A DNA stretch of 64,000 bases from Bacteroidaceae bacterium (GTDB lineage: Bacteria; Bacillota; Clostridia; Oscillospirales; Acutalibacteraceae). The notes below the pieces were generated by a model. The model was given only the letters and a program-made list of their open reading frames with translations. It ran no database searches and was not told the origin of the DNA. The stretch is from contig CAVCCW010000001.1 of NCBI GenBank assembly GCA_963600825.1, positions 4,841-68,840 of the forward strand, in the 5' to 3' direction. Both the position numbers and the translations under genes were made by a program. Below are positions 22,620-47,788 of the stretch, piece by piece; position 1 is the first letter of the stretch; each line of letters starts with the position of its first letter.

Positions 22620-22702
22620 GTACATGATATATCCGATTTTATCGGAAACTTTTGGTTAGAATTTACAGTATTAAAAATCCCAAGACCAAGGAGGAATCAA
22701 AC

Positions 22703-24769
22703 ATGAAAACCTATAGTTCAGCCAACATACGAAACATTGTGGTAGCGGGTCATGCCGGCAGAGGTAAGACCTCACTGTGCGAAGCCATGCTTTATGTAGC
22801 AGGGGCAACCGATCGTCTCGGAAAAATAGCCGACGGCAGCACAGTCATGGACTATGACCCGGAAGAAAAGAAAAGACTCGCCAGTTTGCAGAGCGCTGTA
22901 GCAAGCCTTGAATGGAATGACGTCAAAATTAACTTAATTGACACTCCTGGTCTTTTTGATTTCGCCGGCGGTCTTTCCGAAGGCGTGCGTGCAGCAGGCT
23001 GCATGATGATTGTAACGGATGCAGAAAAAGCCAAGTATGATGTTGGGGCCGAAAAGGCCTTTGCCGCAGCCGAAGACAGAAATCTGTCCAAGATTTTTGT
23101 CATTAATAAGACGGATGCGGAAAACGCCAATTTCGGCAATCTGTTTGAAGAGCTGAAAGCCATCCACGGCAACAAGCTTTGCCCGGTCGTAGTACCGTTT
23201 ATTGAAAACGACCGCATTAAGTGCCTGGTTAACTTTTCACAGAACAAAGCTTATGAATATCACGACGGCAAAGCCGTTGAAGTGGATATGCCGTCTTCCG
23301 AAAAGTTGGACGCCATGCGGGATATGTTCCTGGAAGCCGTTGCCACAACCGATGACGACTTAATGGAAAAGTATTTTAACGGAGAAGAGTTTACAGAAGT
23401 AGAAGCCCTGACCGGCCTGCTTGCCGGTGTTACCGAAGGCTCCGTTTATCCGGTTTACGCCTGCTCCGCAACCAAGCTGGAAGGCATAGATCTTTTGCTG
23501 AAGGGCATTGTTAACCTTGGACCATCTGCTTCTTCCAAGACCGGCGAACTTGCCGTAGATGAAGACGGAAATGAAGTCCAGGTTCCTTGTGATGACAAAG
23601 CGCCGCTTGCCGCCATTTGCTTTAAGACTATTGCAGACCCGTTCGTTGGCAAACTGTCTTATCTGAAAGTCATTTCCGGTAAGCTGACGGCAGAAAGTGC
23701 AGCCTATAACCCACGGACCGGAGAAATGGTAAAGATGGGCAAGCTGGTTGCGCCACAGGGCGGAAAACAGACCGATATTAAAGAAATCAGTGCCGGAGAT
23801 ATCGGCATTGTTACCAAGCTGGCCGGTGTTAAGACCGGAGACACCCTTTGCGATCCAAAGCACATCCTTACCCTGAAGGGCCTGTCGTTGCCGGTGCCTG
23901 TTTACACCAGAGCGGTTACTGCCAAGAAGAAGGGCGAAGAAGAAAAAATTGCCCAGGGCCTGTTGCGTCTGTCCGAAGAAGATCCAACCATTAAATTCTA
24001 TACAGATCCGGAAACCAAGGAACAAATCCTGGCCGGCCTTGGAGAACAACACGTTGATATTATTGTTGGCAAGCTGAAGAGCAAGTTTGGTGTAGAAATG
24101 AACCTGGCTGCGCCGAAGGTTGCTTACCGGGAAGCCATTCGCAAGAGTGTTTCCGTTCAGGGTAAGTACAAGAAGCAATCCGGTGGTCATGGTCAGTACG
24201 GAGACGTTTGGATTCGCTTTGAGCCATGTGATGCCGAAGGCCTGGAATTTGCAGAAGAAGTCTTTGGCGGATCTGTTCCACGGAACTTCTTCCCGGCAGT
24301 AGAAAAGGGTTTACAGGAATCTATCAAGCACGGTGTGCTTGCCGGATATCCAATGGTTGGCCTGAAAGCGGTTCTGTATGATGGCTCTTACCATCCGGTA
24401 GACTCGTCTGAAATGGCATTTAAGACCGCCGCTTCCTTTGCGTATAAGGAGGGTATTCCGAAGGCAGCACCGGTTATCCTGGAACCGATTGTTACTTTGA
24501 CGGTTGACGTTCCGGATGACAACATGGGTGACATCATGGGAGACATTACGAAGCGTCGTGGCCGTGTTCTTGGCATGGAGCCAATTGACGGTCGTCCCGG
24601 TATGCAGCGTTTGGTAGCAGAAGTTCCGGATGCGGAACTGTCCGACTTCTCAACCATGCTTCGCTCTACCACCAAGGGTCGTGGCTCCTTTACCAAGGAA
24701 TTTGCCCGGTATGAAGATGCTCCACAGAATGTGGCAGAAAAAATTATTGCAGAATCCAAAGCAGAATAA
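22703..24769 (+). CDS. elongation factor G paralog (translational GTPase family) with degenerate switch motifs
   Basis: 688 aa from the ATG behind an AGGAGG RBS. G1 GHAGRGKTS, G3 DTPGLFDF, G4 NKTD. EF-G domains II-V are recognisable. Confidence 0.85.
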   Translation: MKTYSSANIRNIVVAGHAGRGKTSLCEAMLYVAGATDRLGKIADGSTVMDYDPEEKKRLASLQSAVASLEWNDVKINLIDTPGLFDFAGGLSEGVRAAGCMMIVTDAEKAKYDVGAEKAFAAAEDRNLSKIFVINKTDAENANFGNLFEELKAIHGNKLCPVVVPFIENDRIKCLVNFSQNKAYEYHDGKAVEVDMPSSEKLDAMRDMFLEAVATTDDDLMEKYFNGEEFTEVEALTGLLAGVTEGSVYPVYACSATKLEGIDLLLKGIVNLGPSASSKTGELAVDEDGNEVQVPCDDKAPLAAICFKTIADPFVGKLSYLKVISGKLTAESAAYNPRTGEMVKMGKLVAPQGGKQTDIKEISAGDIGIVTKLAGVKTGDTLCDPKHILTLKGLSLPVPVYTRAVTAKKKGEEEKIAQGLLRLSEEDPTIKFYTDPETKEQILAGLGEQHVDIIVGKLKSKFGVEMNLAAPKVAYREAIRKSVSVQGKYKKQSGGHGQYGDVWIRFEPCDAEGLEFAEEVFGGSVPRNFFPAVEKGLQESIKHGVLAGYPMVGLKAVLYDGSYHPVDSSEMAFKTAASFAYKEGIPKAAPVILEPIVTLTVDVPDDNMGDIMGDITKRRGRVLGMEPIDGRPGMQRLVAEVPDAELSDFSTMLRSTTKGRGSFTKEFARYEDAPQNVAEKIIAESKAE

Positions 24770-24773
24770 AAGA

Positions 24774-24802
24774 AGGCCTCCGGCAAGTTGCCGGAGGCCT
24801 TT
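24774..24802. terminator. bidirectional intrinsic terminator
   Basis: AAGGCCTCCGGC-AAGTT-GCCGGAGGCCTT with T-runs on both strands. Confidence 0.8.
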
Positions 24803-24812
24803 CAATTTTTGT

Positions 24813-25577
24813 TTAGTCTGCTTTTAAAATGGCTAAGTTCTTTGCAGATTGTTCTACGTTATGGGAATAAACGTGGGAAAGGTCAATCATGTCATACACC
24901 GTGATAGGGTGTCCGCGTTTGGACCACCGCGCAAAGCACATTAAATATAAGAACTTTAAACTGCGAAGGGTTAAGAGGCGTTCAATGGCTAAATCGCCAT
25001 CCTGATACGCATCCAGGGTATAACGGAAGAAAAAGTAGGCGCCAAGGCGGCGGAACCACTGGTTAATCTGATCCCCCTGCTGCTCCTTGAAGAGCACTTG
25101 GGCGGAGTAGTAGTCCGGGCGACGAAGCAACAGCTTTACGGCGTGCACGGCTTTGGCCCAGTCTTCGCTTAACACTTCCATAGAGTCCATGCGGTCCCGC
25201 AATTGAAGATTGGTTTCGTCCAAGGCAAACAAGTCTTCCAATGGGCTTTGTGGGTCTAACGCGGTGGAAACCAGTTGGTCACGAATGTCCCGCAGGTCAT
25301 CCAATTTGGCGTCTCCGGTGCTTAGGTCCGTGTCTCCGGTTACTTGGAAAGAGGCGTCTGGTCCGAAAAACAGATGGCCGACTTCCATGCAGGAAAGACT
25401 GAGGTCCATTTGCTCATAGTTGCCAATGGTTAGAACAGATTGTGGGAAACTGGTTACCAGGTGGGTCATGCCTTCATTTATGCCGGCGTCGTTTCCGGGA
25501 CAGTGATATTCCAGGCAGTTTTCTCCGGCACAGGTAAATTGTTCGGCGTATTGTGGATACTCTCTCATTCTTCTCAC
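24813..25577 (-). CDS. FliB-family (CxxCxxCC-domain) paralog, truncated and Cys-depleted
   Basis: 254 aa. Shares the N-terminal EYPxY..F.C.G..C, the Y.Q.DLSLSC core and the C-terminal FRY..LYLM.F..W..VE motifs with the upstream paralog. Lacks the second Cys cluster. Confidence 0.55.
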   Translation of the reverse strand: MRRMREYPQYAEQFTCAGENCLEYHCPGNDAGINEGMTHLVTSFPQSVLTIGNYEQMDLSLSCMEVGHLFFGPDASFQVTGDTDLSTGDAKLDDLRDIRDQLVSTALDPQSPLEDLFALDETNLQLRDRMDSMEVLSEDWAKAVHAVKLLLRRPDYYSAQVLFKEQQGDQINQWFRRLGAYFFFRYTLDAYQDGDLAIERLLTLRSLKFLYLMCFARWSKRGHPITVYDMIDLSHVYSHNVEQSAKNLAILKAD

Positions 25578-25601: not shown

Positions 25602-26621
25602 TTAATTTTTGAAGGCGGCAATATTCTTGTCGTCATGCTCTACCTCTTTGGAATAGGTGTGGCAGAATTCCATGAAGTCCTGATTGGTCAGGTGGTATTC
25701 CGCTACCGGACCGGTTTGGCCGGCTTTTTGTTCTCCGGCCCACCAGTGGGAAAAGGCCATAAGATATAACAGGCGCATGCTGCGACGCATCATTTTCAGA
25801 CCGCAGACCGGGCTGTCATCATAATAGGAATCCGGGAAATACCGGAAAGCCAGATACATACTGATCTTTTCAAAGTTCCGCTCCAGAATTTCCTGATTGC
25901 GCCAAAGGAAAAGGGCTTCCAGGTTTTCATTGATATGCGGAAGAAGTTCTTTCATCTGCTTCATTTCCGCGGCCCAACGCGGATCCCATGGGTCTTCGTC
26001 TTTCAATAGCTTTAAAAGGGCTTCATTGCTTTCTTTCGGCAGGCGTTTGCCGATTAAAACATATTCCTCTACCTGCGCAATACGCTTTGGCAAGGGAAGA
26101 TCCGTTTTTCCGAGAATGGCCAGAGCTTTATCCCGTACTTCCAGACAGGTAGTAAAGTCTATGTCATCCAAATAGGATTCTGTCAGGTAGGCGGGATTTT
26201 CCTTCTCCTGCCGAATGACAGAAAAACGGAAGTCGTCCCGGAAGAACAGCCGACTGGCTTCCGGGCAGGAAAGACTTAAGTCATACTGCCGATAATCAGC
26301 TACTTCTACCACAAAACGCGGATGTTCGGCGCAGGTGCGGCAAAGACGGTTTTCTCCTAAATGCAGAATGATATCACACAGGTTTTGCTCATTTAAAAAC
26401 GGGCAGCGCCCCTTTTCTGTCAAGGGAAAAACGGCGTCTCCGTCCGGGGTTTCCGCAATATGGGAACGGATGACGTCCCCAAACGGAGCGGGTGCAATTT
26501 CCTGATAGTAGGTTAGGGCGTCTTCGTCTAAATCTACTTCCCAACCGGCACAGCAGGTTTCGGGACAATCTCCGGCGATACAGTGAAACTCCGGATAATA
26601 ATTAGGGTATTCAATGACCAT
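25602..26621 (-). CDS. FliB-family Cys-rich protein (flagellin lysine-N-methylase-like, 8-Cys metal-binding domain)
   Basis: 339 aa. FHCIAGDCPETCCAGW plus GRCPFL..NLC..RLCRTC gives eight conserved Cys. 11-nt overlap with pepD. Confidence 0.6.
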   Translation of the reverse strand: MVIEYPNYYPEFHCIAGDCPETCCAGWEVDLDEDALTYYQEIAPAPFGDVIRSHIAETPDGDAVFPLTEKGRCPFLNEQNLCDIILHLGENRLCRTCAEHPRFVVEVADYRQYDLSLSCPEASRLFFRDDFRFSVIRQEKENPAYLTESYLDDIDFTTCLEVRDKALAILGKTDLPLPKRIAQVEEYVLIGKRLPKESNEALLKLLKDEDPWDPRWAAEMKQMKELLPHINENLEALFLWRNQEILERNFEKISMYLAFRYFPDSYYDDSPVCGLKMMRRSMRLLYLMAFSHWWAGEQKAGQTGPVAEYHLTNQDFMEFCHTYSKEVEHDDKNIAAFKN

Positions 26622-28117: not shown

Positions 28118-29287
28118 TTAAAAGGAAAGGGTATTGACCTTTTCTGTTAATTCTATAATTTGATCCCGGTAAAACGCAATCAGTGCCGGGCCTTCCGGCT
28201 GGTTCTGCAGGCGGCGGATAGAGCGCCGCAGTAACCGGGTATAACCAAGCAATTTTGCTTTGTTTTCCTCTTCTTCTAAAATAACCGGATCCTTGGTTTC
28301 GAAGTATTCTTCCAGGGTTCGTTTCCAGAAAGTACCGGCAAGTTCCCATGGAATGCCAAGAAATTCGTCAGTTACGCTGTGGTTCAGTGCAGAAAATCCG
28401 CGGAATGCATTAAAGATAGAGGCAAAGTCAAAGACCGGAGCGCCGTAAGACAGCGTGTCCATATCAATCAGGATGGGTTCTCCGTTCTGGAGCATGACGT
28501 TGCGGGTATGGTAATCTCCGTGGATCAGATGGTGATCTTCCGGAATGGCTTGTACCAGGGCATGTAATTTTTCCCAGGTTTCTGCCGGAAGGTGCTCCTT
28601 CAGGAAGTCTACCCAACCCATAACCACGGCTTTTTCATCTGGAAAATCTTCCGGGGAAACTTCGGTGGCATGGATTTGTTTTAACAGACGCACAAAAACC
28701 TGTAAATAGTCTTCCAGGTTTTCCGGATGGGCCTTTAACAGTTTACTAAGGGATTTGGCGGACAGCAGTTCAAAAACAGAACCGTAGCTGTTGCCGACTT
28801 TTACTACATCGTACGGGATGGCGGTATTAATGCCGGATACAAAGGCTTTGCGAGCCAGCTCCCGCTCATTTTGAATTTCCGGAAGTGCATCCGGATTGCG
28901 ATATACTTTGACAACGGTTTCCGGGTCAATCCGGTAAACCAGGCCGTTGGAGCCCTGACCGATTAACGTACAGCCTTCTACAGACAACTGGCGATACGCT
29001 TTTTGTACGGGCAGCATTTCCGTAAAACCGGTCATTTCCAAAATGTCATACACTTCAGGGGAAGCGTTGATTATTTGCAAATCCGGATGATCCTTCCGGA
29101 GACGCAGTATAACACGCAGTCCGGCACTGGAAATGTAAACCAGGGCTTCGGCGTCCAGAATATAGGAAAGGCCCGGATTAGCATCTATGACCTTTTTGCA
29201 GTCTGCTTCCACAGCGGCAGCGTTATTGGTGTCAATGCGCCCTTCCAGGCAGAGGTAGAGGGTATCGTTTTCCTGATAGGTTTTCAT
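28118..29287 (-). CDS. STAS domain fused to a protein-kinase-like (APH/ePK-fold) domain
   Basis: aa 1-95: STAS with VYISSAGLRVIL. aa ~105-389: Gly loop IGQGSNGLVY, VVKVY lysine, catalytic HGDYHTRN and metal-binding IDMD. Confidence 0.7.
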   Translation of the reverse strand: MKTYQENDTLYLCLEGRIDTNNAAAVEADCKKVIDANPGLSYILDAEALVYISSAGLRVILRLRKDHPDLQIINASPEVYDILEMTGFTEMLPVQKAYRQLSVEGCTLIGQGSNGLVYRIDPETVVKVYRNPDALPEIQNERELARKAFVSGINTAIPYDVVKVGNSYGSVFELLSAKSLSKLLKAHPENLEDYLQVFVRLLKQIHATEVSPEDFPDEKAVVMGWVDFLKEHLPAETWEKLHALVQAIPEDHHLIHGDYHTRNVMLQNGEPILIDMDTLSYGAPVFDFASIFNAFRGFSALNHSVTDEFLGIPWELAGTFWKRTLEEYFETKDPVILEEEENKAKLLGYTRLLRRSIRRLQNQPEGPALIAFYRDQIIELTEKVNTLSF

Positions 29288-29313: not shown

Positions 29314-29877
29314 TTAGTCGTGATGAAAGATTTCGTGCACCAGCTGCAGGTATTCCTGATAGGCATCGGTATCTGCCAGTTGGTTTGTATATTCTGCAAT
29401 GCTCTCATAATACCATTGTTGCATGGCAGGGTCCTTTTGGTTGAAGTGTGCCCACAGGGCATCTCCTTCCGCGCGGTAGGAGCGGGCGTAGGAGCGGAGA
29501 TTGGCAAGCTTGTCACTAAGCCATAAAATTTTGATGTCTCTGTCAGTGGTCTGCTTTAAATCCTGTAAGGATTCCTTTTTCCGGATTTGCCAGGTGTCTT
29601 CCGGCGGGCGGTCCTGCCGCTTGTCTTCCGTTTCACTCTTGACCAGTTCATAAACGCGTGGGCCGAATTTTTCCTGGATTTCTTCCAGGGAGACACCGGC
29701 GTCTTCTACTACATCGTGGAGAACGGCGGCAGCCAACAACTCCTGATTATTGGAAATAGTGGATGCAATGGAAGCAACCTCCAGCGGATGAAGAATGTAT
29801 GGGGAATAGGAAAGTTTTCGTGTCATGCCGGCATGCTTTTCCGTGGCAAAGTAAATTGCCTGATCTAATAAATCCAT
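29314..29877 (-). CDS. HD-domain protein, RelA/SpoT-type (p)ppGpp hydrolase-like (small alarmone hydrolase-like)
   Basis: 187 aa. ..EKHAG..R....PYILHPLEVA....AAAVLHDVVEDAGVSLEEIQEKFG..V..LV matches the SpoT/Mesh1 hydrolase core. No synthetase domain. Confidence 0.7.
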   Translation of the reverse strand: MDLLDQAIYFATEKHAGMTRKLSYSPYILHPLEVASIASTISNNQELLAAAVLHDVVEDAGVSLEEIQEKFGPRVYELVKSETEDKRQDRPPEDTWQIRKKESLQDLKQTTDRDIKILWLSDKLANLRSYARSYRAEGDALWAHFNQKDPAMQQWYYESIAEYTNQLADTDAYQEYLQLVHEIFHHD

Positions 29878-29887
29878 AAGTCTGCTG

Positions 29888-31915
29888 TCAAATCCTTTTC
29901 TGTAAAGTTAAGATATTCTGACCGTCTTTTTGCTGGTAGGACAAGTCATCCATGGTTTTCTTAACCAGGAAGATGCCGAGTCCGCCAACGGTACGGTCTT
30001 CTGCACTCTGACTGAGGTCCGGTTCATCCCGATCTAACGGGTTAAAAGGAATGCCGCTGTCTGTAAATTGCAGACTGAAGACGCCGTCTTTGTAGCGGGT
30101 TCCCAATGTAATATTTCCGGATTGCCCAATATAAGCATAGTGCGCAATGTTTACGAAGACCTCTTCTGCTGCAAGGGAAATTTGCATGGCGTCTTTGGGA
30201 CTGCAGGGGGTCTTTTCCAACGCCTGCTCTACAAAGGCAATGGCGGAGGCCAGTTCCGCATCCGAGGCGGGGAAGGTTTGTTCGGAGAAGTCTGTATTAT
30301 GGGCGGCTTTGCGGAATTCCATCAGGAGCATGGTAATGTCGTCAAACTGTGCAGCGTTTCCGGCAAAGGTGGCCAGTTCCTGCCGCAGGTTCAGAAGGAG
30401 ATCATAAATGTCATCTCCGCCGTGCTGTGTCAGATAGGCGGAAAGCCGATCCGGTCCATACAGTTCATTGGCTTCATTCATGGTTTCAGTAACACCGTCG
30501 GTGTATAAGAACAACCGGTCTCCCGGATTCATGTGCATGGTGCCCAGTTTGTATTTCATTCCGTCCATGGCACCAAGCACCAGGCCTGGACGATTCTTCA
30601 CATACCGGAAAACACCGTCTTTCTGCCGGAGCAGTGGCGGGGTATGACCGGCATTGGCATAATGCAGTTCGCCGGTTTCCAAATCCAAAACGCCCATCCA
30701 CGCGGTAACAAAGTATCCGGTGTCATTGCCTTCACACAAAGTGTGGTTCATCCGTGTAAAGACTTCATTCGGTTCCAGCCCGGATTGGGCGTGATTCTTC
30801 ATTAAAATTTTGGCAATGACCATGAACAGGGCAGCGGGAACGCCCTTGCCGGAAACGTCTCCAACTGCAATTGCCAGGTGTTTCTGGTCTACCATATACA
30901 TATCATAAAAGTCACCACCGACCTCTTTGGCCGGTTCCATGGTGGCAAAAATGGAAAACTCATCATGCTCCGGGAACGGAGGGAAAATATTTGGCAGCAT
31001 GTTGGCCTGAATGTCCGTGGCAATGCTGAGCTCGGCGCTAATCCGTTCTTTTTCCTTTAGAGAGTCCACCATCTGGTTAATGCTGTTGCCGATGTGCCCC
31101 AGCTCATCTTTGGAGTTCATTTCCAACGGCTCTTCCGGGAATTCGCCGGAGCCGACTTCGTCCAGATAAGAATCTATGCGGGCCAGGCTTTTGCTCCATT
31201 TTGCCGTGCGATTCAGAATTAAGGCAAAGGCCAAAAGTAACATGATTCCAAGGAGCAATAACAGTCCCTGTTTCAGATTCTTGGTGGCATTTTCCAGTTC
31301 GGAAACTTCCCGGCCGGCTACCAGAATGCCAATGGTGTTGCCTTCGGCATCATAAATACAATGGTAATAACAGTAAACCATATTTCCTGCTGCATTGGCC
31401 TGGCCGGAGAAGTAGCCGTCTTTGTCCAGCGTATCAGCAACGGTCTTATCAATATAAGTGCCAACGATAACTTTACCGTTCATATCTTTAGCAGAACCGG
31501 CAACGCGGATATAGTGCCCTTGCTGATATCCTGTTTTCTTGTCTCCGACCCAGGTTAGTTCGTCATCATTGTCGGTTTTCATGAACACATAGGAAAAGGA
31601 CCCGGTTTTTTGCTGTAATTTCTGGAACGGTTCGGTGTTGGCGTCTTCCAGGGTTCCGTTGCCAAGACGAACGGTTCCTTTATAAATGTAACCGTCCTGA
31701 ATGGACCAGTCCCCTTCACCAATTAAATCAGAAAGGTATTCCAGGTTAGATTGCAACTGCTCGGTCATGAGTTCTTTTTCCTGCTGGTCTACCACATAGG
31801 TAACTGCAATGGAAATACTGGTATACAGAATGGCGCCGCAGATCAGAACAATCAGAAGCACTTTGGACGCCACAGTATGCAATTTAAAGAAGGATTTTAA
31901 TTTCTCTTTGTTCAT
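29888..31915 (-). CDS. membrane sensor: TM / Cache-like / TM / HAMP / PP2C (SpoIIE) phosphatase / RsbW-type HATPase kinase fusion
   Basis: 675 aa with two TM helices flanking a ~190-aa periplasmic-type domain. PP2C motifs GGDFYD, GDVSGKG, YTDGVTE, FDDITML. C-terminal N-box EEVFVNIAHYAY, DSGIPFNP, GGLGIFL. Confidence 0.8.
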   Translation of the reverse strand: MNKEKLKSFFKLHTVASKVLLIVLICGAILYTSISIAVTYVVDQQEKELMTEQLQSNLEYLSDLIGEGDWSIQDGYIYKGTVRLGNGTLEDANTEPFQKLQQKTGSFSYVFMKTDNDDELTWVGDKKTGYQQGHYIRVAGSAKDMNGKVIVGTYIDKTVADTLDKDGYFSGQANAAGNMVYCYYHCIYDAEGNTIGILVAGREVSELENATKNLKQGLLLLLGIMLLLAFALILNRTAKWSKSLARIDSYLDEVGSGEFPEEPLEMNSKDELGHIGNSINQMVDSLKEKERISAELSIATDIQANMLPNIFPPFPEHDEFSIFATMEPAKEVGGDFYDMYMVDQKHLAIAVGDVSGKGVPAALFMVIAKILMKNHAQSGLEPNEVFTRMNHTLCEGNDTGYFVTAWMGVLDLETGELHYANAGHTPPLLRQKDGVFRYVKNRPGLVLGAMDGMKYKLGTMHMNPGDRLFLYTDGVTETMNEANELYGPDRLSAYLTQHGGDDIYDLLLNLRQELATFAGNAAQFDDITMLLMEFRKAAHNTDFSEQTFPASDAELASAIAFVEQALEKTPCSPKDAMQISLAAEEVFVNIAHYAYIGQSGNITLGTRYKDGVFSLQFTDSGIPFNPLDRDEPDLSQSAEDRTVGGLGIFLVKKTMDDLSYQQKDGQNILTLQKRI

Positions 31916-31933: not shown

Positions 31934-32230
31934 TTAAACAATGGTAAGAATGTCCGAAAAGCCGGTCATATCCAAAATGTCCCGGACGGTGCTGTTGACA
32001 TGGGTCAGAGTTAAGGAACCGCTCCCGGCAAGCTGCTTTTGTGCTGTCAGCAAAACACGCAATCCGGCAGAGGAAATATAATCCGATTCTGCAAAATCCA
32101 AAACCAGTTGATTGCTCTTTTCCAAAGCACGGTTAATTGCTGCGGAAAGCTCCGGGGAGGAAAGAGTGTCTAATCGCCCGGAAAGGGCAAGGGCAATGGT
32201 GGCTCCGTTTTCCGTTACAACGATGTTCAT
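31934..32230 (-). CDS. STAS-domain anti-sigma-factor-antagonist-like protein (RsbV/SpoIIAA family)
   Basis: 98 aa with conserved DYISSAGLRVLL phosphorylation motif and C-terminal DILDMTGF. AAAGGAG RBS. Confidence 0.85.
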   Translation of the reverse strand: MNIVVTENGATIALALSGRLDTLSSPELSAAINRALEKSNQLVLDFAESDYISSAGLRVLLTAQKQLAGSGSLTLTHVNSTVRDILDMTGFSDILTIV

Positions 32231-32359: not shown

Positions 32360-32434
32360 TGGTGACCCGGACGGGAATCGAACCCGTGTTACCGCCGTGA
32401 AAGGGCGGTGTCTTAACCGCTTGACCACCGGGCC
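32360..32434 (-). tRNA. tRNA-Glu (anticodon UUC), CCA encoded
   Basis: Reverse complement GGCCCGGTGGTCAAGCGGTTAAGACACCGCCCTTTCACGGCGGTAACACGGGTTCGATTCCCGTCCGGGTCACCA folds as a cloverleaf. Near-identical to Bacillus tRNA-Glu. Confidence 0.92.
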
Positions 32435-32437
32435 ATT

Positions 32438-32514
32438 TGGTAGCGGGAGTAGGATTTGAACCAACGACACCCCGGGTATGAACCGAGTGCTCTAGCCAAC
32501 TGAGCTATCCCGCC
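32438..32514 (-). tRNA. tRNA-Met (anticodon CAU; elongator type most likely, Ile2-lysidine not excluded), CCA encoded
   Basis: Reverse complement GGCGGGATAGCTCAGTTGGCTAGAGCACTCGGTTCATACCCGGGGTGTCGTTGGTTCAAATCCTACTCCCGCTACCA. Anticodon loop TTCATAC. One U-U mismatch in the T stem. Confidence 0.85.
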
Positions 32515-47478: not shown

Positions 47479-47788
47479 TTTTAGGCACGTGAATTGGGCG
47501 TGTTGCGCCCAAAATCACGCAGAGATATGCGAAGATGCGGGAGGTGGCCGTCCCCGAGACGGGAAATTTCCGCGGAGTATGTCCGATTTTAAACCGGGCG
47601 AAACAAATAACGGCAAATCAATCTGACTCGCAAAAGATTGAACTGCCATGCTGTTTTGTCACCCGAAAGCAGAGCTGCTCACGAGCTTTAGCCTTCAGGT
47701 TTTTTAAATACTGACTGGGGAAACGCCCGGTTGGGTTTATAAAAGCAGCAATAAGCCCGCCATACTTATCACTCTAGGAGGAGTAAAA

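Follow-up and report, generated by a model that had tools for sequence, protein, structure and literature searches.

Partner switching is the textbook mode of sigma-factor control in bacteria, and few cases with other outputs are known. In the SpoIIAA/SpoIIAB/SpoIIE and RsbV/RsbW/RsbU systems of Bacillus, a STAS protein with an acceptor serine is co-encoded with a GHKL kinase of the RsbW type and a PP2C phosphatase. The same components were found in a stretch of 64,000 nucleotides, called the window here (contig CAVCCW010000001.1, positions 4,841 to 68,840 of the forward strand; assembly GCA_963600825.1, named Bacteroidaceae bacterium and placed by GTDB in the Acutalibacteraceae), and all three canonical partner-switch components pass their family tests at the level of sequence. 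In the window, however, the operon lacks a linked sigma factor, a single membrane sensor combines the kinase with the phosphatase, and of the two STAS units one is fused to an APH-type kinase, which replaces the usual output. The gene concerned, at 28118–29287, encodes the protein STAS-APH, a one-gene fusion of a complete STAS domain and a catalytically intact kinase-like domain of the APH branch.

Fusion of an RsbW-like kinase and a PP2C phosphatase in one polypeptide acting on a STAS protein is known from Rv1364c of Mycobacterium tuberculosis, and in HsbR/HsbA/HsbD of Pseudomonas a partner switch controls the diguanylate cyclase HsbD. In Vibrio fischeri, the bifunctional RsbW-kinase/PP2C protein SypE acts on the STAS protein SypA with an output that is not a sigma factor (PMC10120452), while in SiaABCD of Pseudomonas a phospho-switch protein controls a signal-making enzyme, a diguanylate cyclase (PMC7647112). 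The 675-amino-acid sensor in the window resembles SypE and Rv1364c in combining serine kinase and PP2C phosphatase in one polypeptide, but has Cache-HAMP or, elsewhere, other membrane input instead of a receiver domain, has PP2C ahead of the kinase, and is accompanied by an additional STAS–enzyme fusion and a phosphoesterase partner. SiaABCD and HsbA-HsbD share with the module described here an enzyme, rather than a sigma factor, as output; there the switch protein binds its output enzyme, a GGDEF protein in its own right, whereas here an APH-fold kinase is fused to STAS. None of SypE/SypA, Rv1364c, SiaABCD and HsbA-HsbD has a STAS-kinase fusion or a phosphoesterase partner.

CapK/CapS (EMBO J 2026, PMC13373217) likewise pairs an anti-sigma-type kinase with a STAS-like substrate and has a non-sigma output. 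It is excluded as the same system, CapK being a GHKL and not an APH-fold kinase; CapS is a DNA-binding repressor. CapK/CapS is associated with immune operons, whereas no defence family of PADLOC-DB 2.0 was matched by any of the four operon proteins described below (E≤0.01). What is new here is a partner switch with a fused small-molecule-type kinase as output alongside a nucleotide-type phosphoesterase; the logic of control by phospho-STAS is already familiar. Full-text literature searches for a STAS-kinase fusion or for the module found no description, in agreement with the original prediction for this gene, which recognized no characterized fusion of this kind.

The gene is a single unbroken open reading frame with an ATG start, 389 codons and no internal stop, and a ribosome-binding site (AGGAAGGA) lies 10 nucleotides 5' of the ATG. 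The same protein with the same gene boundaries was called independently on five public contigs. A frameshift or two-frame artefact is excluded by the continuous frame, these five agreeing calls and hundreds of full-length orthologues. The AlphaFold model, built with 36 homologues as input, had a mean predicted local distance difference test score of 93.4, a predicted template modelling score of 0.79 and no disordered segments, with the linker blocks between the two domains at 84–89. Residues are termed invariant with reference to an alignment of 36 family members.

Both domain matches were far above chance. For the N-terminal domain, Pfam STAS (PF01740) matched residues 3–96 at E=1e-10 with 41.8 bits against a gathering cutoff of 22.6, the NCBIfam anti-sigma-antagonist model TIGR00377 was narrowly passed (54.7 against 53.45), and the family profile matched the SpoIIAA structures 1auz and 1th8 at about 3e-11. 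Ser54 aligns with the acceptor serine of TM1442 (ymdSaGl) and SpoIIAA (fmdSsGl), a conserved position that starts helix 2. The surrounding motif YISSAGLR is invariant (36/36), and the SS pair is retained in 99 of 116 STAS-fused cluster representatives (see below).

For the C-terminal domain, Pfam APH (PF01636) matched residues 107–296 at E=1.7e-21, with 77.5 bits against a gathering cutoff of 23.2. The top 50 PDB matches of this part of the model in Foldseek were all APH-family small-molecule kinases, including APH(2'')-Ib, MTR kinase, APH(3')-Ia, APH(4)-Ia, the capreomycin, macrolide and amicoumacin kinases and NahK (E about 1e-10, identity 13–19 %, target-normalized template modelling score 0.5–0.63). 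The bilobal fold with a helical insertion and the Lys, Glu, HxDxxxxN and Dx(D) residues are common to these enzymes and STAS-APH, which differs from them in its N-terminal STAS domain, Arg-rich C-terminal helices and fixed signalling neighbours. Sequence alignment with the hygromycin kinase APH(4)-Ia equates D258 with D198, N263 with N203 and D275 with D216; D198 and N203 are the positions mutated in PDB entries 3w0p and 3w0q. The residues K127, E141, H256-G-D258-Y-H...N263 and I-D275-M-D277-T-L are invariant in all 36 sequences. Among 150 representatives of the wider kinase clade, HxDxxxxN is kept in 146, and the first Asp of DMD is near-universal while the second varies (DMD 89, DLD 12, DME 8 and DMG 8).

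Named kinase families were tried and rejected. The nearest NCBIfam model to the C-terminal half, the uncharacterized family TIGR02172 (Fibrobacter paralogous kinase-like), is excluded at 107.6 bits against a cutoff of 228.2, as are the antibiotic-resistance APH families (APH_3p 19.4/205, APH(6) 16.4/325, APH(4)-Ia 15.9/725). A CotS/CotI spore-coat kinase is excluded by scores of 23.2 against 172.7 and 17.7 against 550, and STAS-APH occurs in Spirochaetia and Erysipelotrichaceae as well. A Hanks-type kinase was rejected because Pkinase (PF00069) gave no match at E≤0.01, with weak RIO1 and Bud32 fragments near the catalytic loop only. By these scores the kinase is placed inside the APH superfamily and outside every named subfamily.

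The Arg motif of the C-terminal helix, R-L-x-R-R-x-I-R-R, is absent from variants with an added C-terminal HATPase_c_2, PHP or PolyA_pol domain. The helix might bind anions, or it might dock a partner that those variants carry as a fused domain.

The original prediction had described the architecture largely as it is found here. The complete anti-sigma-antagonist-type STAS domain that it placed at the N-terminus extends over residues 1–96, the motifs VVKVY with K127 and HGDYHTRN lie at the residues it quoted, and the kinase fold with an intact catalytic set is borne out by Pfam, Foldseek and the APH(4)-Ia alignment; the best matches in the structural comparison that it had proposed, MTR kinase included, are small-molecule APH-family kinases. 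Its 389-codon frame is continuous, on the minus strand, which had been left unstated. Three details needed correction: of the Ser53/Ser54 pair named as acceptor, within a YISSAGL correctly read at 51–57, it is S54 and not S53 that aligns with the known acceptors; the Gly-rich loop IGQGSNGLVY is present but begins at 109, not 110; and in the metal-binding IDMD, D275 is the near-universal Asp while D277 varies in distant relatives. A non-kinase fold, misaligned catalytic residues and a frameshift, which it had listed as grounds for abandoning the claim, are all excluded.

STAS-APH is the fourth and last conserved gene of a minus-strand operon with intergenic gaps of 10–34 nucleotides, in the order STAS, Cache-HAMP-PP2C-RsbW-like kinase, HD_4, STAS-APH. 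The free STAS protein (98 amino acids) scored 65.6 bits against the TIGR00377 cutoff of 53.45 and has the same acceptor motif as the fused domain, YISSAGLRV. The sensor protein matched sCache_3_3, HAMP, SpoIIE (1.2e-53) and HATPase_c_2 (2.1e-23) in Pfam, with a hydrophobic segment on each side of the Cache domain. Its PP2C motifs (GGDFYD 333, GDVSGKG 352, TDG 472, DDIT 525) and GHKL motifs (N-box EEVFVNIAH 584, G1 DSGIPF 619, G2 GGLGIF 644) are all intact. The STAS domain of STAS-APH is probably a substrate or partner of this adjoining RsbW/PP2C protein. The HD_4 protein matched Pfam HD_4 (PF13328) at 5.1e-22 (78.7 bits against a gathering cutoff of 27.2) and contains HPLEV 30, HDVVED 54 and SDKLAN 121; its best PDB matches were Lmo0812 (4yf1, 2.4e-22) and 7qoe, followed by Rel/SpoT hydrolase domains and MESH1. 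By threshold and HD..ED motifs it is of the small alarmone hydrolase type, with putative (p)ppGpp/(p)ppApp hydrolysis.

The architecture survey showed STAS-APH to be widespread. The best 120 matches in a collection of 5.8 billion proteins were all 384–400 amino acids long and carried STAS plus APH, at 56–100 % identity to the query, and at least 599 STAS-APH loci were present in GTDB contigs taken at one genome per species. Carriers belong mainly to Oscillospiraceae, Acutalibacteraceae, Lachnospiraceae, other Clostridia, Spirochaetia and Erysipelotrichaceae; the isolate Coprococcus catus VPI-C6-61 is one of them. When only the kinase half was used as query, exhaustive HMMER searching gave 465 clusters at 50 % identity (E≤1e-30). 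Among the 150 best-scoring cluster representatives, STAS preceded the kinase in 116, 19 were kinase-only, 13 were fragments and two had another N-terminus. Fusion to STAS is thus the prevailing architecture in a distinct kinase clade, and a rare chance fusion is ruled out.

The taxonomic names attached to such contigs were mixed. Contigs 94–95 % identical to the window over the whole operon (L001, L002) carry the labels Muribaculaceae and Paludibacteraceae, and names such as Bacteroides, Segatella and Prevotella are attached to other loci with the same Clostridia-type module. The window itself contains an S10-Clostridia ribosomal leader at 47524–47601. The labels of these metagenome-assembled genomes therefore look unreliable.

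To describe the linkage, 80 STAS-APH loci from different species were searched within 5 kb on either side, and partners were found by tblastn of defined domains; clustering of neighbouring open reading frames was set aside, being confounded by long antisense frames and by single-linkage merging through STAS. HD_4 was found at 54 loci, at 50 of them on the same strand and within 150 bp upstream of STAS-APH, free STAS at 49 on either side of the gene, HATPase_c_2 at 47 and PP2C at 37. At least one partner was present at 47 of the 50 loci that had at least 3 kb on both flanks. Gene order was shuffled between lineages, so that the linkage is functional and not inherited synteny. Y-x-SSAGL is kept in 50 of 51 free STAS counterparts and HD..ED in 54 of 56 orthologous HD_4 neighbours.

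No further partner recurred at more than about 16 of the 80 loci. An alpha/beta-hydrolase (Abhydrolase_1, about 260 amino acids) lies on the same strand near the module at 16 of them (for example L040 7150–7932, directly upstream of STAS-APH, and L007 355–1167) and is also found at L086 2336–2875 and L087 6657–7460; it may be a facultative fifth component or a matter of lineage synteny. Among linked genes, no sigma factor recurred within 5 kb at the 80 loci or in the window operon. With no linked sigma or anti-sigma target, STAS-APH misses the defining feature of anti-sigma antagonism. Databases, where they name it at all, call it 'anti-sigma factor antagonist' only, a label that is misleading and warrants renaming.

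The input domains of the PP2C-kinase protein vary between loci and comprise sCache, dCache_1 plus HAMP, 5TM-5TMR_LYT, QueT-like and MatE-like membrane domains. Interchangeable inputs on a constant core are a hallmark of a conserved signalling core. A MatE-type membrane domain was also seen fused to an RsbW-like HATPase_c_2 beside STAS or STAS-APH genes (L010 2517–4265, L090 125–1957), where it is a transporter-like input domain on a partner-switch kinase.

Parts of the module also occur fused to one another (table). At L087 the PP2C protein has lost its HATPase domain, which is carried by the STAS-APH protein instead. On its contig, P0133 comes after a free STAS and a SpoIIE protein without HATPase domain and is followed by a PHP protein; here the RsbW-like domain is relocated onto the STAS-APH protein. 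P0179 comes after a MatE-HATPase_c_2 gene on its contig. Each fusion was seen on a single contig, and the fusions are therefore taken as supporting evidence only. Neighbours of the gene for P0185 (L088 652–2490) include DUF402, RpiB and RNase T genes, an RNA- or nucleotide-flavoured setting on a single contig. P0198 (residues 1–215) and P0242 (1–190) have in common an N-terminal domain of about 200 amino acids with no Pfam match, followed by STAS in P0242 and joined straight to the kinase in P0198.

Phosphoesterases of unrelated folds (HD_4, TrpH-type PHP or HD-CE) occupy the slot next to the kinase, and a different metal phosphoesterase can stand in at loci that lack HD_4. A TrpH/YciV-type PHP protein lies directly downstream of STAS-APH at L087 and L041, and at L013 and L018 a divergent PHP-like protein occupies the upstream HD_4 slot, 15 nucleotides away. 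The best family matches of the PHP domains were 3',5'-nucleoside bisphosphate phosphatase and RNase AM, all below equivalog cutoffs, and their best structures were 3e0f, 9etk, 2yb1 and 7ug9; the CpsB/YwqE protein-tyrosine-phosphatase type was rejected for them. Of these structures, 2yb1 is Cv1693, a pAp 3'-phosphatase. The group that Mesh1 takes off NADPH is the 2'-phosphate, and small alarmone hydrolases also strip the 3'-pyrophosphate placed on tRNA by toxic RelA-SpoT homologues. HD_4 relatives are hydrolases of (p)ppGpp and (p)ppApp, acting at the 3'-pyrophosphate, and Mesh1 converts NADPH to NADH by hydrolysis (PMC9765508, PMC10083569). The small alarmone hydrolase/Mesh1 and TrpH/YciV-type PHP families, which the partner genes resemble, are not known as partners of APH-type kinases or of STAS switches.

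Two non-homologous folds known to remove ribose 2'/3' (pyro)phosphate thus alternate in one slot beside a kinase of the branch that phosphorylates sugar hydroxyls, which leads to the hypothesis of a nucleotide-like substrate. The kinase would most likely phosphorylate a ribose hydroxyl of a small, nucleotide-like molecule, and the chance that kinase and phosphoesterase act on a common small-molecule substrate seems close to even or slightly below. The original prediction had held the substrate to be unpredictable from sequence, which is not entirely the case, the frequent phosphoesterase partner giving a lead; the operon context and the prevalence of the architecture had both been overlooked.

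We propose, with a probability of about 0.45, that STAS-APH is the enzymatic output of a partner-switching module without a sigma factor, in which kinase and phosphoesterase are opposed on a common, possibly nucleotide-like phospho-substrate. The membrane protein would sense an extracytoplasmic ligand by its Cache domain and toggle between its RsbW-like Ser kinase (HATPase_c_2) and its PP2C phosphatase, and these two activities would set the phospho-state of the serine in the free STAS protein and of Ser54 in STAS-APH. The state of Ser54, or capture of the fused STAS domain by the RsbW-like domain in competition with free STAS, would gate the kinase on or off. When active, the kinase would move the gamma-phosphate of ATP or GTP onto a substrate hydroxyl, and the co-transcribed metal phosphoesterase (HD_4 in the window, TrpH-type PHP or HD-CE elsewhere) would take the phosphate off, so that an outside signal would be converted into the level of a phosphorylated molecule. 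We infer which enzymes phosphorylate and dephosphorylate Ser54, in which direction the kinase is gated and what its substrate is. Intramolecular control by STAS phosphorylation had been suggested in the original prediction; the PP2C/RsbW-like kinase in the same operon, the second STAS protein and the fusions lend it strong support, and from them we infer such gating of the kinase. A narrower version, in which the APH-fold kinase marks a ribose 2'/3'-hydroxyl of a nucleotide, a cofactor or an RNA/tRNA 3' end and HD_4 or PHP erases the mark, as a signal-gated writer/eraser pair for a new phosphorylated nucleotide, appears rather unlikely.

Several observations weigh against the proposal that STAS-APH and its phosphoesterase oppose each other on a small molecule. 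HD_4 is absent at about one-third of the loci, so that the pairing is frequent and not obligatory, and at several HD_4-less loci no phosphoesterase was found within 5 kb. The HD_4 and PHP partners owe their function names to family matches that stayed below threshold (106 and 119 bits, cutoff 400), and their substrates may therefore differ. The PHP, HD-CE and PolyA_pol fusions each come from one cluster representative on one contig. Finally, the APH family also includes protein kinases of the CotS and YihE/SrkA types, and the two classes are not told apart by fold or motifs; a GxGxxG Gly-rich loop occurs in protein kinases as well, as does a basic D+4 residue in the catalytic loop.

This last point bears on the rival that survives best, in which gating is as proposed but the APH-type domain phosphorylates protein, either HD_4 or some other, and would regulate, for example, alarmone hydrolysis. 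In keeping with it, the GxGxxG loop and VxK resemble those of protein kinases, weak matches were obtained to CotS, CotI, the YihE-type PRK11768, Bud32 and RIO, and the close HD_4 adjacency and the HD_4-kinase fusions would be just as expected of an enzyme and its substrate. The swapping of the fold in the phosphoesterase slot weakens this rival, since replacement of HD_4 by an unrelated PHP or HD-CE fits supplied chemistry better than a specific target; moreover, the top structural matches are all small-molecule kinases and a Pkinase (PF00069) match is lacking. We consider this rival unlikely, with some weight of its own.

The kinase might instead act upstream, phosphorylating the STAS serine (its own in trans, or that of free STAS) as a second or replacement anti-sigma-type kinase. 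The Hanks kinase PknD of M. tuberculosis reportedly phosphorylates a STAS protein, and at several loci that have HD_4 and STAS-APH, HATPase_c_2 is missing from the surrounding 5 kb. At 47 of the 80 loci, however, an RsbW-like kinase is already present, sometimes fused to STAS-APH, which would make a second STAS kinase redundant; the phosphoesterase partner would be left unexplained, and an HD_4-kinase fusion without any STAS exists (P0249). This role is accordingly regarded as improbable.

A regulated antibiotic or xenobiotic resistance kinase, of aminoglycoside, macrolide or peptide-antibiotic type, is suggested by the best solved matches being resistance enzymes (APH(4)-Ia by sequence; APH(2''), APH(3'), MPH and Cph by fold). 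Yet the scores lie far under all resistance-family cutoffs and structural identity is 13–19 %, and 55–60 % conservation across classes together with fixed signalling partners is unlike accessory resistance genes. In aminoglycoside kinases the substrate-binding region is acidic, in contrast to the Arg-rich C-terminal helices of STAS-APH. Resistance is thus a very improbable function.

Equally slight is the chance of a toxin–antitoxin or defence-like growth-arrest module, with a kinase toxin and a small alarmone hydrolase-type antidote as in pairs of toxic alarmone synthetase and hydrolase. Weak matches to TCAD9 (conflict-system kinase-like), the HD-CE fusion and the ability of CapK/CapS, an RsbW/STAS pair, to control immunity (PMC13373217) speak for it; against it stand the lack of PADLOC matches for the four operon proteins, the absence of mobile-element neighbours from those seen, a stable chromosomal context and membrane sensors of extracytoplasmic ligands. 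The TCAD9 lead gave nothing, APH-like kinases being mentioned only in passing in the conflict-systems paper (PMC7159879). A non-catalytic nucleotide sensor or scaffold, a generic option for kinase-like domains with nothing specific in its favour, is scarcely credible given catalytic residues invariant in 36 of 36 sequences and HxDxxxxN in 146 of 150 clade representatives.

Table. Position and basis of assignment of the features of STAS-APH, its operon and the upstream tRNA unit in the window, followed by fusions of module parts found elsewhere
Feature	Position or protein	Strand	Basis or remark
STAS-APH fusion gene	28118..29287	minus	389 aa plus stop
STAS domain, residues 1-96	29000..29287	minus	Pfam STAS at residues 3-96
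Ser54 codon, predicted phospho-acceptor, in YISSAGLR (51-58)	29126..29128	minus	alignment with TM1442, SpoIIAA
Linker AYRQLSVEGC, residues 97-106, STAS to kinase N-lobe	28970..28999	minus	Y98, R99, G105, C106 invariant
APH-type kinase domain, residues 107-389	28121..28969	minus	Pfam APH, Foldseek
Gly-rich nucleotide-binding loop IGQGSNGLVY (109-118)	28934..28963	minus	G110, G112, N114, G115 invariant
Lys127 codon (VVKVY), ATP-phosphate-binding Lys by motif	28907..28909	minus	invariant in 36-member alignment
Glu141 codon, partner of Lys127	28865-28867	minus	invariant in 36/36
Catalytic loop HGDYHTRN (256-263): D258 catalytic base, N263 metal ligand	28499..28522	minus	alignment with APH(4)-Ia
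D275-M-D277, D275 the DFG-equivalent metal-binding Asp	28457..28465	minus	aligned with APH(4)-Ia D216
Arg-rich C-terminal helix motif RLLRRSIRR (351-359)	28211..28237	minus	R351, R354, R355, R358, R359 invariant in ~390-aa clade
187-aa HD_4 protein (small-alarmone-hydrolase / RelA-SpoT hydrolase type)	29314..29877	minus	26 nt upstream of STAS-APH
675-aa membrane sensor: transmembrane segment 1, extracytoplasmic Cache, transmembrane segment 2, HAMP, PP2C (SpoIIE-type), RsbW-like HATPase_c_2	29888..31915	minus	Pfam
Free 98-aa STAS protein, anti-sigma-antagonist type, operon gene 1	31934..32230	minus	Pfam STAS 3.6e-16
Strong terminator hairpin 3' of tRNA pair, ~90 nt ahead of STAS operon	32357-32323	minus	
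tRNA-Glu	32360-32434	minus	
tRNA-Met	32438-32514	minus	
Perfect sigma-70 consensus promoter TTGACA-18-TATAAT ahead of tRNA pair	32563-32534	minus	
HATPase_c_2-STAS-APH	P0122		
STAS-APH-HATPase_c_2	P0133, P0149		
HD_4-APH without STAS	P0249		
HD_4-APH with degenerate STAS without acceptor Ser	P0196		
HD-CE-STAS-APH	P0179		
STAS-APH-PHP	P0138		
STAS-APH-PolyA_pol head	P0185		

The operon starts behind a tRNA-Met/tRNA-Glu unit and its terminator, and no convincing candidate for a promoter of its own was seen. A riboswitch-like leader was considered and rejected, the promoter and terminator belonging to the tRNA unit. Downstream of STAS-APH, an M20 peptidase and two FliB-like Cys-rich proteins are confined to the lineage of the window, and the HAD neighbour is not conserved either. 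The two Cys-rich proteins are paralogues of 339 and 254 amino acids (25602–26621 and 24813–25577, minus strand), about 27–30 % identical and 3' of the M20 peptidase, and are kept in the closest relatives (L001, L002) only; neither has a Pfam match at E≤1, and precomputed annotation gives the second a weak FliB_C (flagellin lysine-N-methylase-like) match. An EF-G-like GTPase frame of 705 amino acids with an apparent TTG start (22652–24769, plus strand) is convergent with the cluster, and the two have a common bidirectional terminator hairpin at 24772–24802.

If the proposed role of STAS-APH as a kinase output is true, it would represent a new output class for partner-switching systems, and an orphan branch of small alarmone hydrolases, together with one of TrpH-type PHP enzymes, would acquire a function. 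A new signalling molecule, itself phosphorylated, might also come to light in species that are abundant in the gut microbiota. The less likely writer/eraser version, if true, would amount to a new pathway of second-messenger signalling or of RNA-end modification that is common among Clostridia and Spirochaetes of the gut.

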